Sequence record: EF437941
DNA length: 64,000 nt
Source of the DNA: Escherichia phage Phi1
Direction: 5' to 3' (one strand)
In this document: one piece after another, positions 16,459 to 28,898 of the stretch
How the letters are laid out: every line of letters starts with the position of its first letter
How positions within the stretch are numbered: position 1 is the first letter of the stretch
The notes under the pieces: model-generated
Databases searched by the model: none
Told to the model about the DNA's origin: nothing
Seen by the model: only the letters and a program-made list of their open reading frames with translations
Made by a program: the position numbers and the translations under genes

Positions 16459-17055
16459 TTATTTGGTAGTACCGTCAATAAAATGTTTACGGCACACAGA
16501 AACATATTTATCCTCTGCACCAACTTCTATTTGAGCACCATCGCGAATAACATTACCATCTTTATCTACTCGAAGGACCATTGTTGCTTTCTTGCCACAA
16601 TGACAAATACCCTTCATTTCGACCAGCTTATCGGCAAATGCCATTAATGCCGCAGATCCTTCAAATAGATTGCCCTGAAAGTCAGTGCGAAGGCCATAGC
16701 ACAGTACAGGGATATTTGCATCATCAACAAGCGCACACAAGCCTAAAACATGCTCTTTAGTCATAAATTGGGCTTCGTCTACAAAAACTGCATCTGGACG
16801 CCATCGATCCGGTCTACGCTTACCTAACGATTCACGATAAACCAAGTCGAAAAGATCATCAGATTTAGTGAAGGTGATCGCTGGAGCACTTAGGCCAATT
16901 CGGGAAACGACTTCACTTTCTGAATCTCGATTATCAATCGCTGGCTTAAGAATTAATACTCGCATATCACGTTCGGTATAGTTATAAGCACTTTGTAATA
17001 GGGAAGTTGATTTGCCAGCGTTCATAGATGCATAGTAGAAATATAATTGCGCCAT
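16459..17055 (-). CDS. tk: thymidine kinase
   Basis: P-loop MNAGKST, FVDEAQF and a C-terminal Cys cluster typical of thymidine kinases. Confidence 0.95.
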   Translation of the reverse strand: MAQLYFYYASMNAGKSTSLLQSAYNYTERDMRVLILKPAIDNRDSESEVVSRIGLSAPAITFTKSDDLFDLVYRESLGKRRPDRWRPDAVFVDEAQFMTKEHVLGLCALVDDANIPVLCYGLRTDFQGNLFEGSAALMAFADKLVEMKGICHCGKKATMVLRVDKDGNVIRDGAQIEVGAEDKYVSVCRKHFIDGTTK

Positions 17056-17391: not shown

Positions 17392-17583
17392 TTAGCCTTC
17401 ATGATGGTCGCAACCTTTATTGCTACAGTACATCCACCAATCCCACATTCCCCACGGTAAACGCTGCATATCGTCGTTACAACAAGTGAAGATGATAGGC
17501 CAACCACATCTAACACATCGGCAGTTTTCTTTCATGTGAGCGGTATTAGGCTTCTTCATAGATGACTCCAATATAATCGACAT
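17392..17583 (-). CDS. small Cys/Trp-rich protein (putative zinc-binding)
   Basis: Multiple CxxC-like pairs in 63 aa. Confidence 0.4.
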   Translation of the reverse strand: MSIILESSMKKPNTAHMKENCRCVRCGWPIIFTCCNDDMQRLPWGMWDWWMYCSNKGCDHHEG

Positions 17584-17786
17584 TTACATTTAGGGCAATG
17601 CGGTTCTTTAATATAATACCCGTCTGTCTTTGGAACACTAACAGGAGCGGTTTTTATATTATATTCAGTGAAACAACGAAAACAAGTTACGTTTTCTACA
17701 GACTGACGTTTCACCCAATCACCGGAATATAGATCATTTTTATTTGTCATATTCAACCACCACAATGTTAATGTCTGGAGTAGCAA
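17556..17786 (-). CDS. small Cys-rich protein (putative zinc ribbon)
   Basis: CFRCF ... CPKCKC pairs. Confidence 0.4.
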   Translation of the reverse strand: MLLQTLTLWWLNMTNKNDLYSGDWVKRQSVENVTCFRCFTEYNIKTAPVSVPKTDGYYIKEPHCPKCKCRLYWSHL

Positions 17787-18195
17787 TATTAATAATCTCT
17801 TCTACACATTCCCACTCAAGGCCACCGATACCGCAACCGATTTTAGGAATATAGAAAGGCTGTATAGCACCTTCAAAAACATCATTGAGAGACTCAAATC
17901 CTTTCAGGATAGCACCATATTCAGCATTTGGACCCGGTCGGAATTGGGTATAGAGATTCACCCCGCACCAGTTATAACCATTAACTTGATGCGTCCAGAT
18001 ACTAAACCCACCCAACTTTTCTACCTTACCGCGAGAAGTTTGCTTGTCAATCTCTAACGCTTGCGGGAACTCTTTCGCGATCTTTGCAGCAATACCAGCG
18101 CCCATAGTATGAAAACAATTACAACCATGAATTAAATGACCGTTTCCTTGTTTAAACAGGGCGATGAGATCGCCCTTTACAGTATCAATAATCAT
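17740..18195 (-). CDS. macro domain protein (ADP-ribose binding / hydrolase fold)
   Basis: GDLIALFKQG...HGCNC....GAGIA signature typical of macro domains. Confidence 0.75.
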   Translation of the reverse strand: MIIDTVKGDLIALFKQGNGHLIHGCNCFHTMGAGIAAKIAKEFPQALEIDKQTSRGKVEKLGGFSIWTHQVNGYNWCGVNLYTQFRPGPNAEYGAILKGFESLNDVFEGAIQPFYIPKIGCGIGGLEWECVEEIINIATPDINIVVVEYDK

Positions 18196-18210
18196 AATAT
18201 AAACCTCTCA

Positions 18211-18570
18211 TTAGTCACGGGAAGACAACCCAGCCATAAAACGGCTTAACAGTGTGTCGCGATAAGCAAAGCATAATTGCTTATCAGGGGCAGTATCACA
18301 CAGGTTGCGTTTTGTTTTAGCAAAGCTGGCAATACTCAGATCCCATGCTCGATTTTTTCGTTTTTCGTCTCGACCTTGTTTGTATGCTTCATCAAGTTCG
18401 AGCGCGATAAAATCACTACACATGTTATCATCATCACAGAAAGTTTTAATTATCTTTTTGTTGATCTCAAATCCTTTGTATTCGAACTTTGGATAAGGGC
18501 GCTCATTACTAGCAAGCGCACCAGCCGAGAACATCATAGCAATCATAGCAATTATTGTCAACTTTTTCAT
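18211..18570 (-). CDS. secreted/periplasmic hypothetical protein
   Basis: N-terminal signal peptide (MKKLTIIAMIAMMFSAGALA); 4 Cys. Confidence 0.5.
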   Translation of the reverse strand: MKKLTIIAMIAMMFSAGALASNERPYPKFEYKGFEINKKIIKTFCDDDNMCSDFIALELDEAYKQGRDEKRKNRAWDLSIASFAKTKRNLCDTAPDKQLCFAYRDTLLSRFMAGLSSRD

Positions 18571-20532: not shown

Positions 20533-21231
20533 CTAACCACGGGTATAGTGTTCCAGAACAACTGTCAGATGAATATATTCTAATAGATCTTTCCAAAAGT
20601 CAACATCTGGTTCTTCCGGCATACCGTTTTTCTTTGCCTCTTCACGAGCGAGTTTAACACGCTCGTAGAGATCTTTCAATTCTTCCCGCACATTATCAAA
20701 GGTTCTTTCTCCTAACTTACACGCTAAAATAGAAGAACGTCGCGCGAGCGGGAATTGTAGATCACCTGTCTGATAGATTTCAAGTAGCTGATAACCAACA
20801 CGCAGAGCATGAGAAAGATCTTTCCAGTTACTGAAATACTTTTCAGATTTGGCTACCTGTTTCTTGAGATAACCAGACAAACCCCACATCCCAACATGAT
20901 AGAATTTATCGCGATGTGTTCGGATGTATTCCCATTCTCTGGAGGATTCGATCAACATGTTACTAGGAGCGTGCACCATGTCAATAGCGCCGATATCACC
21001 TTTACATGCCAGATTGATAAACCGTTTTAGACTGAACATATTAACGTCAATATCGTCTTTGGTGTTCTTGATACCTTGACCGCTAGTGCTTTGGTCATAG
21101 TGTTCTTTCATCGATCCTAAGATAATTTCTTTCGCAGTCGGAACAAAGATACCACGATAATCTTTATCGGAATTTTCAGTATCAAGGCCGTATAAGTGAG
21201 ATCCGAAGACCATTTTAACCATTGTATGCAT
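20533..21231 (-). CDS. Pol-beta superfamily nucleotidyltransferase-like protein
   Basis: N-terminal GSHLYGLDTENSDKDYRGIF matches the hG[GS]x(9-13)[DE]h[DE]h nucleotidyltransferase signature. Confidence 0.6.
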   Translation of the reverse strand: MHTMVKMVFGSHLYGLDTENSDKDYRGIFVPTAKEIILGSMKEHYDQSTSGQGIKNTKDDIDVNMFSLKRFINLACKGDIGAIDMVHAPSNMLIESSREWEYIRTHRDKFYHVGMWGLSGYLKKQVAKSEKYFSNWKDLSHALRVGYQLLEIYQTGDLQFPLARRSSILACKLGERTFDNVREELKDLYERVKLAREEAKKNGMPEEPDVDFWKDLLEYIHLTVVLEHYTRG

Positions 21232-21273
21232 AATTAAACCCTCAGTTGATTAAGAGATTGCATCATATCATCA

Positions 21274-21308
21274 TAAAACGAAAAAGCCAACCCTTTTCGG
21301 ATTGGCTT
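21274..21308 (-). terminator. intrinsic terminator after the GrcA-like gene
   Basis: Hairpin AAGCCAATCCGAAAAGGGTTGGCTT plus TTTTTCGTTTT on the minus strand. Confidence 0.7.
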
Positions 21309-21317
21309 GATGAAAAA

Positions 21318-21734
21318 TTAGAGAGATTCGGTAAAGGTACGCGCGATAACGTCACGCTGCTGGTCTGGAGTCAGACTATTGAAGCGCACCGCGTAACCAG
21401 AAACGCGAATTGTAAGCTGCGGGTACTTCTCAGGATGTTCAACAGCGTCCAGCAACATTTCTCGTAACAATACGTTAACATTCAAATGCTGACCACCTTC
21501 GACAACCGGAGCACCATTATCTACAATGACAGGGCGGAAGCTAGTTGTGTGCAGTGCCAGCGAATCGACGTCTTCTGCGGTGATCACATGATCTTCTGCG
21601 AAAGTTTTACTAACAATTACTTTAGCGCCGATCAGTGCTTTCGGTTCGGATACCAGAATCATAGGCGCGAAGTGTCCACCAATAATAGTACCTTTATGCT
21701 CACCTTTCATGATTTGAATTGCTTTAAATTCCAT
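21318..21734 (-). CDS. autonomous glycyl radical cofactor (GrcA/YfiD-like)
   Basis: C-terminal [13 protein letters not shown] glycyl-radical motif; C-terminal ~60 aa closely resemble E. coli GrcA as recalled. Confidence 0.85.
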
Positions 21735-27316: not shown

Positions 27317-27559
27317 TTATAGATCACAGAGCCATCTTAAAGCACCACATAAAGCGAGCAGAATACTAGGTATAAACGAGATCAAAACAAGTTTGCAAAA
27401 ATCATCTAAGGTAACACCGGAATAGCTACCAACTGTAACAACACCGATCATAAGACACAGAAAGAAAACAAATGCAATCAGAAACAAAGTATTGCTAAAC
27501 AGTTTAGTGATCATTAGACACCCCACGACGGTCAATTTCAAAAACTTTTTTATCATCAA
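27317..27559 (-). CDS. small membrane protein
   Basis: 80 aa, hydrophobic. Confidence 0.45.
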   Translation of the reverse strand: MMIKKFLKLTVVGCLMITKLFSNTLFLIAFVFFLCLMIGVVTVGSYSGVTLDDFCKLVLISFIPSILLALCGALRWLCDL

Positions 27560-27707
27560 CGAAGCATGTCACAACTGCCTCGTTGACTTCCGCAAATTGT
27601 TGTGTTACCCACTTAAGGTCAGATCGAAACAATGTTCTATTAATAACAAATGTTTTACCGCTCTTATCCTTACCCATAAATTTTGCTTTAACCATATCCA
27701 ATTCCAT
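27504..27707 (-). CDS. hypothetical protein
   Basis: Soluble 67-aa ORF, tiled. Confidence 0.4.
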   Translation of the reverse strand: MELDMVKAKFMGKDKSGKTFVINRTLFRSDLKWVTQQFAEVNEAVVTCFVDDKKVFEIDRRGVSNDH

Positions 27708-28427: not shown

Positions 28428-28898
28428 TTACAGTTTGGTCGTCCACTCCAGGTCTAGATCTTCGACATATTCATGAGATCGGACAATCTCTAAATCGAAC
28501 TCTAGGTCAGTGCCAAATTTACGCGCACCAACATCATAAGAAAGCGTGATATGCGGTACATATTCAGGATAATCCCACGTCGCACCTAAAGCAGTTCCGA
28601 TATCGTGTCTGAATTGCATGTAGTCGCTTTCAAATGCCAACACAAGCGCATTAGTACCGGATTGAGTTTCAAACACTTTCAGATGGCATAGAGAGCCTAA
28701 AAACTTTTCACCCTCTTCTGGGATAAACGGAACATAGACACGAGAATATAAGATAGTGCTATGCAGTTTATCACGAGGAACGGCATTAGGCAGATCGTAG
28801 AACTCCTGCAATTTTTCAATGCGGTCTAGTGTATCCTCAGTGAATTTAACAGCCGCATATGTACCTTTAACGGATTCTCGAAACGGGGTCATAATCAA
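28428..28898 (-). CDS. 57B: gp57B-like protein
   Basis: Size (156 aa) and position immediately downstream of 57A in the 1-57A-57B order of T4; synteny only. Confidence 0.45.
   Translation of the reverse strand: MIMTPFRESVKGTYAAVKFTEDTLDRIEKLQEFYDLPNAVPRDKLHSTILYSRVYVPFIPEEGEKFLGSLCHLKVFETQSGTNALVLAFESDYMQFRHDIGTALGATWDYPEYVPHITLSYDVGARKFGTDLEFDLEIVRSHEYVEDLDLEWTTKL

Follow-up and report, generated by a model that had tools for sequence, protein, structure and literature searches.

The tk.4 gene of phage Phi1 encodes a stand-alone macrodomain of the T4 Tk.4/AdfM family that carries glutamine at the catalytic lysine position and probably erases DarT2 marks from DNA

What does the small macrodomain gene next to vs in a T4-like phage reverse, and on whose behalf is the modification made? 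We addressed this question in a 64,000-nucleotide stretch of Escherichia phage Phi1 DNA (record EF437941), which is referred to throughout as the window. An earlier note, made from the sequence of this stretch, had described a 151-aa ORF as a phage-encoded macro domain protein on the basis of the segments GDLIALFKQG, HGCNC, and GAGIA, and had offered two possible roles for it. The ORF is present with an ATG start and lies on the minus strand, which the note had not given (Table 1), and the three segments occupy residues 8-17, 23-27, and 32-36 of its product. The macro protein call was right; that the ORF is tk.4, a gene annotated long since, had gone unrecognized. The gene is already known: it is named in phage JSE, whose genome is the nearest annotated one, its domain was described in 2006, and the anti-DarTG2 role of its T4 counterpart was described in 2025.

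Table 1 Coordinates of the Phi1 tk.4 gene, its translation signals, and the conserved motifs of its product, as positions in the window
Feature	Position	Strand	Remarks
tk.4/adfM ortholog, 151 aa, stand-alone macro domain	17740..18195	-	ATG-started ORF in ORF list
Shine-Dalgarno GAGAGG	18204..18209	-	8 nt 5' of tk.4 ATG; read from sequence
Zinc-binding ORF (17556-17750), ATG	17748..17750	-	Pfam Phage_zn_bind_2; start overlaps last 11 nt of tk.4
G8-D9-L10, N-terminal 'GD' motif	18166..18174	-	Aligns with TARG1 KGDL
H23-G-C-N26-C-F-H-T-M31-G-A-G34-I-A36, catalytic-loop Asn and first Gly-rich ADP-ribose loop	18088..18129	-	
Asp50, invariant (101/101), Tk.4-family-specific	18046..18048	-	Alignment A1
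N80-L-Y82-T83-Q84, signature NxYTQ	17944..17958	-	Q84 at catalytic-Lys position
P117-K-I-G120-C-G122-I-G-G125, second Gly-rich diphosphate-binding loop	17821..17847	-	

The assignment to the macrodomains was borne out by profile, fold, and conserved loops. The Pfam Macro profile (PF01661) was matched over its full length (positions 1-118 of 118) with an E value of 6e-7 and 29.9 bits, above the gathering cut-off of 22. Structure prediction with AlphaFold2 from 101 homologs gave a model with a mean pLDDT of 97.2 and the three-layer alpha/beta/alpha macro fold. Its top matches in Foldseek were to human TARG1 (E 3e-11, TM 0.76-0.82), and the best viral structural match was a protein annotated as tk.4 of Acinetobacter phage 133 (TM 0.90). 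The earlier note had proposed a profile search, structure prediction, and inspection of the catalytic residues, and had tied its call to the presence of a glycine-rich diphosphate-binding loop; this loop is there, with the residues of both glycine-rich loops either invariant or conserved in at least 90% of 101 family sequences. By structure as well as sequence, the nearest neighbors were found in the ALC1-like class (TARG1, DarG, Poa1p, and SCO6735) and not in the MacroD, PARG, or macroH2A classes. The window protein thus belongs to the ALC1-like (TARG1/DarG) macrodomain class.

The spacing at both ends of the gene shows it to be part of a closely packed operon on the minus strand. Only 15 nt separate the stop codon of vs (18211-18213) from the tk.4 start, and the GAGAGG Shine-Dalgarno sequence falls inside this gap. 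At the other end, the 11-nt overlap with the downstream zinc-binding ORF suggests that the two genes share a transcription unit and are translationally coupled. The G+C content of tk.4 (41.2%) is close to that of the window (40.6%). The earlier note had placed the ORF among small Cys-rich and periplasmic proteins next to tk, and this agrees with what was found: tk at 16459-17055 (Pfam TK), two small Cys-rich zinc-binding ORFs (PF23895 and PF23903), a 97-aa membrane protein, a vs gene whose product bears a signal peptide, and vs.1, which encodes an SLT domain along with a signal peptide. Promoter-like sites were not above expectation (19, compared with 13.8±3.5 in shuffled sequence), nor were terminator-like sites (3, compared with 2.8), and no dedicated tk.4 promoter or terminator is claimed. 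No Rfam family was matched in the 15-21 kb part of the window. Plus-strand ORFs of 36-37 aa running across tk.4 were dismissed, as they are without any support.

Some features of the neighboring genes can be recorded separately. A near-consensus sigma-70-like site (18533-18561, minus strand; TTGACA, a 17-nt spacer, and TG-TATGAT; 11/12) lies within vs, at the very start of the gene, some 340 nt ahead of tk.4. The vs gene itself (18211-18570, minus strand) is annotated as a valyl-tRNA synthetase modifier, and its product, like that of T4 vs, has a typical signal peptide (MKKLTIIAMIAMMFSAGALA) at its start, an unexpected feature if such a protein binds a synthetase of the cytoplasm, as it is said to do. 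Window Vs had no Pfam match, and it shares with T4 Vs its position and size and a C-terminal GLS(T/S)R, with no further similarity detected. Two genes downstream of tk.4, the Cys-rich Phage_zn_bind ORF (17392-17559, minus strand) ends early in comparison with JSE EpJSE_00091 (L001 4342-4560); a GEG→G*G change introduces a premature stop and leaves 55 residues in place of 72, with loss of the last 16 residues and of the overlap with the next gene start.

In order to place the gene among its relatives, the 16-20 kb part of the window was compared by megablast, which returned 57 phage records, every one of them from a Krischvirus coliphage of the RB49/JSE/GEC-3S kind. Identity was 95-99% for 54 of the records and 98.5% for the best, phage Cognac. 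Relative to JSE, tk.4 differs at seven codons, four synonymous and three not, a number at which dN/dS is uninformative. The gene order rI-tk-(three small ORFs)-tk.4-vs-vs.1-regB is common to JSE and T4, and from tk to regB it is also that of the window, in what is the early region of T4-like genomes. The T4 protein aligned with the window protein end-to-end (44% identity, E 4e-45, residues 1-150 against 1-152); the two share size, the slot between tk and vs, the NLYTQF…PGPN and Gly-loop motifs, and the stand-alone macro architecture. They come from different genera (Tequatrovirus and Krischvirus), 56% of their residues differ, and the anti-DarTG2 phenotype is known for T4 alone. Similarity between T4 tk.1-tk.3 or T4 vs and the small ORFs or vs of the window was undetectable, so for these genes the synteny is one of position only. 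Sequence, synteny, and motif together place the ORF in the T4 Tk.4/AdfM family.

This family is large and widespread. PHROG 335 was matched with an E value of 1.5e-62, 2,734 phage records contained a tk.4 homolog, and at E<=1e-30 there were matches to 1,339 clusters (50% identity). The window protein was 68% identical to copies in Vequintavirus-like coliphages of about 137 kb (Bas59, JLBYU08, and ECML-10), compared with 44-50% for T4-type Tequatrovirus copies, which hints that tk.4 has been exchanged between phage groups. A bacterial homolog (P0106, from Pelagimonas) had no DarT nearby and was flanked by housekeeping genes only. The existence of such a stand-alone bacterial copy shows that the Tk.4 family is not tied to DarT.

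The orthologous CDS in the JSE RefSeq record is named tk.4 with the product description "phosphatase; contains A1pp phosphatase motif," and PHROGs uses a phosphatase label too. Taken at face value, this would make Tk.4 a metabolic enzyme of the Poa1p kind, an ADP-ribose-1''-phosphate phosphatase or O-acetyl-ADP-ribose deacetylase that cleans up NAD metabolites. We regard this as very improbable. No source of Appr-1''-p is evident, and to our knowledge no 2'-phosphate remains after RNA repair of the T4 type by PseT and Rnl. A 2006 study described the A1pp (macro) domain in tk.4 orthologs from T4-like phages (PMC1524935), and A1pp is a historical domain name (smart00506; PMC1524935) rather than an activity. 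Furthermore, the phenotype of T4 tk.4 is specific to defense.

This phenotype comes from a T4 transposon library grown on E. coli expressing DarTG2, in which tk.4 was the single significant hit (bioRxiv 10.1101/2025.11.20.689424, November 2025 preprint). A clean tk.4 knockout makes T4 sensitive to DarTG2, the loss of read count and fitness of tk.4 mutants is specific to the DarTG2 host, and the gene was renamed adfM, for anti-DarT factor, macrodomain (10.1101/2025.11.20.689424). DarT2 ADP-ribosylates thymidine in single-stranded DNA at TNTC motifs, and the macrodomain of DarG2 reverses this modification (PMC11825919, PMC13309987). Removal of ADP-ribose from DNA was proposed for AdfM by analogy to DarG, the evidence being genetic (10.1101/2025.11.20.689424). 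Of the two roles put forward in the earlier note, it is therefore the countering of a host ADP-ribosylating defense that stands, by orthology to T4 tk.4/adfM acting against DarTG2.

The other role, regulation of the phage's own ADP-ribosyltransferases, found no support. Here, Tk.4 would reverse or tune the modifications made by transferases of the Alt/ModB type, and the close relative JSE does encode alt, a second ADP-ribosyltransferase, and modB. These transferases are an awkward match for the macrodomain, as Alt, ModA, and ModB modify arginine, and ADP-ribose on arginine is removed by ARH/DraG-type hydrolases. Macrodomains of the TARG1/DarG class are not known to cleave this linkage. Since, in addition, tk.4 is not genomically linked to alt or modB and the T4 mutant loses read counts specifically in the DarTG2 host, a role of this kind is hardly to be expected.

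The residues expected to bind and cleave ADP-ribose were examined in a family alignment (A1) of 101 sequences, from which the conservation counts out of 101 are taken. In the GD motif, G8 was found in 94, L10 in 93, and D9 in 77 sequences, with asparagine replacing D9 in 19. This motif contacts adenine in macro domains, and by analogy with the KGDL of TARG1 it would do so here as well. Within the first loop, G24, N26, M31, G34, and A36 were unchanged in all sequences, and in the second P117, G120, and G122 were invariant, with I119 and G125 conserved in at least 96%. In the signature NxYTQ, N80 and Y82 were invariant and T83 and Q84 were each present in 100 of the 101. The motif NxY[TS]Q was found in 133 of 137 further representatives of 50%-identity clusters, and T4 Tk.4 also carries an NxYTQ-type motif. 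Asp50, which is invariant in the family, falls in a column of the profile alignment that holds no acid in TARG1, BT1257, or SCO6735, a glutamate in Mycobacterium tuberculosis DarG, and a lysine in PhiKZ gp104. Columns shared with distant macrodomains were taken from profile-guided hmmalign and HMMER pairwise alignments, as plain MAFFT mis-registered the catalytic loop; the placement of Asp50 and Gln84 is that given by the alignments.

In these alignments Gln84 occupies the column of TARG1 K84, DarG K80, and SCO6735 Gln85, which is the position of the catalytic lysine. N26 falls in the column of SCO6735 Asn27 and of the equivalent DarG asparagine. Human TARG1/OARD1 (PDB 4J5S) resembles Tk.4 in length and in its KGDL, MGAGIA, and PRIGCG motifs, and differs in that its catalytic dyad, Lys84/Asp125, is replaced by Gln84 and Gly124. 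The difference from DarG (PDB 5M3I, 5M3E, and 7OMU) is greater still. The best PADLOC and NCBIfam models were both DarG models, but both were matched in their macro part only, at positions 3-141 of 329 for PADLOC and 2-141 of 338 for the NCBIfam DarG equivalog NF048014, with 49.5 bits against a cut-off of 250. Tk.4 is without the C-terminal DarT-binding domain, Lys80 is replaced by Gln84, and no darT lies beside tk.4, where the flanking genes are vs and the phage zinc-binding ORF. The window protein is not a DarG. Because the replacement of lysine by glutamine is family-wide, the DarG-like mechanism proposed in the preprint cannot, on this alignment, hold literally for Tk.4.

PhiKZ gp104, a phage orphan macrodomain that also counters DarTG2 and has also been named AdfM, cleaves DarT2-modified DNA in vitro, and mutation of its catalytic-loop asparagine (construct N23A) lowers its activity (PMC13309987). 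It and its chimallivirus relatives (PMC13309987) share this asparagine with Tk.4. They form a separate lineage, however, with 26% identity and a pairwise E value of 7e-7 between gp104 and the window protein, and gp104 retains the DarG-type lysine (FPTKD) and goes into the phage nucleus, neither of which applies to Tk.4. As read from sequence, the T4-type and PhiKZ-type AdfM are one name for two mechanistically different active sites.

A closer match to the active site is provided by the Gln-type ALC1-like proteins SCO6735 and BT1257 (PDB 5E3B and 2FG1). SCO6735 outpaces DarG and TARG1 in hydrolyzing ADP-ribose attached to thymidine in DNA, and it rescues E. coli from DarT; its activity is abolished by Q85A, almost abolished by N27S, and reduced by G128E, and a water-mediated mechanism in which the glutamine positions the distal ribose has been proposed (PMC9411070). 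Tk.4 has the glutamine at the lysine position, the loop asparagine, and the equivalents of Gly126 and Gly128, so that N26, Q84, G120, and G122 match N27, Q85, G126, and G128 and are conserved. This match points to SCO6735-type catalysis on thymidine-ADP-ribosylated DNA by the window protein, whose action would accordingly be enzymatic. The likeness does not extend to the whole protein. Identity is about 23-24%, Val25 of SCO6735 is a glycine in Tk.4, and the invariant Asp50 is specific to Tk.4. The SCO6735 subclass is characterized by a mobile loop, 5 residues longer than in DarG and TARG1, that helps bind DNA (PMC9411070). This 5-6-residue insertion of SCO6735 and BT1257, which bears Lys89 in SCO6735, is not found in Tk.4, where the loop is of DarG/TARG1 length. 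The window protein is SCO6735-like only in part, with a shared active site but a different loop.

Together, these results make it probable that Krischvirus tk.4 is an adfM ortholog encoding an early macrodomain, akin to an orphan antitoxin, that hydrolyzes DarT2 marks on DNA. In a DarTG2 host, infection would free DarT2, thymidines in single-stranded DNA would become ADP-ribosylated, and phage replication would be blocked. The phage macrodomain would then bind ADP-ribose through its two glycine-rich loops and hydrolyze the thymidine-ADP-ribose bond, which would restore replicable DNA. Catalysis would most likely be of the SCO6735 type, with Gln84, held by Asn26, positioning the distal ribose for water-mediated cleavage. 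The anti-DarT2 part of this proposal is carried over from the T4 genetics of the preprint across 44% identity and is to that extent putative. Speaking against the proposal, the acidic pI of the product (16.6 kDa, pI 5.3, both computed) and the missing Lys-bearing loop sit poorly with DNA engagement. The loss of the DarG catalytic lysine and the Pelagimonas homolog that has no neighboring DarT also weigh against it.

The absent lysine may also be read in another way, with Tk.4 neutralizing DarT2 mainly by binding either the toxin or its ADP-ribosylated product rather than by catalysis. ICP1 AdfB, which likely interacts directly with the toxin, sets a precedent (PMC11481870), and DarT inhibition in vitro persists in the catalytically dead variants SCO6735 Q85A, DarG K80A, and TARG1 K84A (PMC9411070). 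But the part of DarG that binds DarT is the C-terminal domain, which is absent here, as only the macro part of the DarG models finds a counterpart. Inhibitors that bind a toxin generally co-vary with the toxin in question, and the invariance of the SCO6735 catalytic residues across this huge family speaks for enzyme activity being under selection. A mainly non-catalytic action is therefore rather improbable.

If Tk.4 is an enzyme, its substrates may still differ from, or extend beyond, those of DarT2. One such reading makes it a broader or different eraser, acting on RNA ADP-ribosylation of the CmdT kind, on protein Glu/Asp, or on the products of secreted ADP-ribosyltransferase toxins, so that action against DarT2 would be one activity among others, or a secondary one in Krischvirus. 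SCO6735 and TARG1 do cleave both ADP-ribosylated thymidine on DNA and Glu/Asp-ADP-ribosylated proteins (PMC9411070), the authors of another study speculate that counter-defenses may detoxify other DNA- or RNA-ADP-ribosylating systems (PMC11825919), and most of this very large family, including the stand-alone bacterial copy, is unlinked to DarT. Against this, DarTG2 is the only condition reported to make T4 tk.4 important, and we consider the broader reading unlikely. A related proposal is that Tk.4/AdfM forms a third and mechanistically distinct branch of the TARG1/DarG macrodomains, defined by an SCO6735-like glutamine site, a scaffold of DarG/TARG1 length that has no mobile loop to grip DNA, and Asp50, and acting as a wider eraser of nucleic-acid ADP-ribosylation. 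We hold this to be possible but doubtful. If it is true, this branch would act on more than thymidine modified by DarT2 (on other bases or on ADP-ribosylated RNA, for instance), and Tk.4 would be a general-purpose phage eraser alongside NADAR, to which it is sometimes fused.

Several of the best 150 family representatives contain a Tk.4-type macro domain fused to other domains. These include proteins outside the window with the architectures Macro-NADAR-DUF4326 (P0185), Macro-NADAR (P0194 and P0246), and DUF4326-Macro (P0164). In DarG1 and AdfN, NADAR acts as the DNA ADP-ribosylglycohydrolase specific for guanine, and T4 AdfN, a NADAR enzyme, counters DarTG1 (PMC11825919). The fusion of a thymidine-type with a guanine-type eraser fits a shared cleaning of ADP-ribosylated DNA, which is in keeping with our preferred reading of Tk.4 as an eraser of DarT2 marks. 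In JSE the AdfN-family gene is a separate one, 30.3 (Pfam Phage_30_3).

As the gene is known, the practical value of these results lies in annotation. Many of the Krischvirus and other phage records listed still read "hypothetical protein" or "phosphatase," and such records could become "AdfM-like anti-DarT2 macrodomain." For specialists, the point is the catalytic residue, which is glutamine in the T4-type AdfM and lysine in DarG.

Elsewhere in the window, the homing endonuclease gene EpJSE_00101 of JSE (176 aa) is missing at 21232-21317, a junction that falls between nrdC.11 (20533-21231) and vs.6 (21318-21734). Two counter-defense genes, a gene 57B homolog and dmd, are located at 28431-28892 and 27522-27707, both on the minus strand. 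The gene 57B homolog, called Acb1 (anti-CBASS), is 100% identical to that of JSE.
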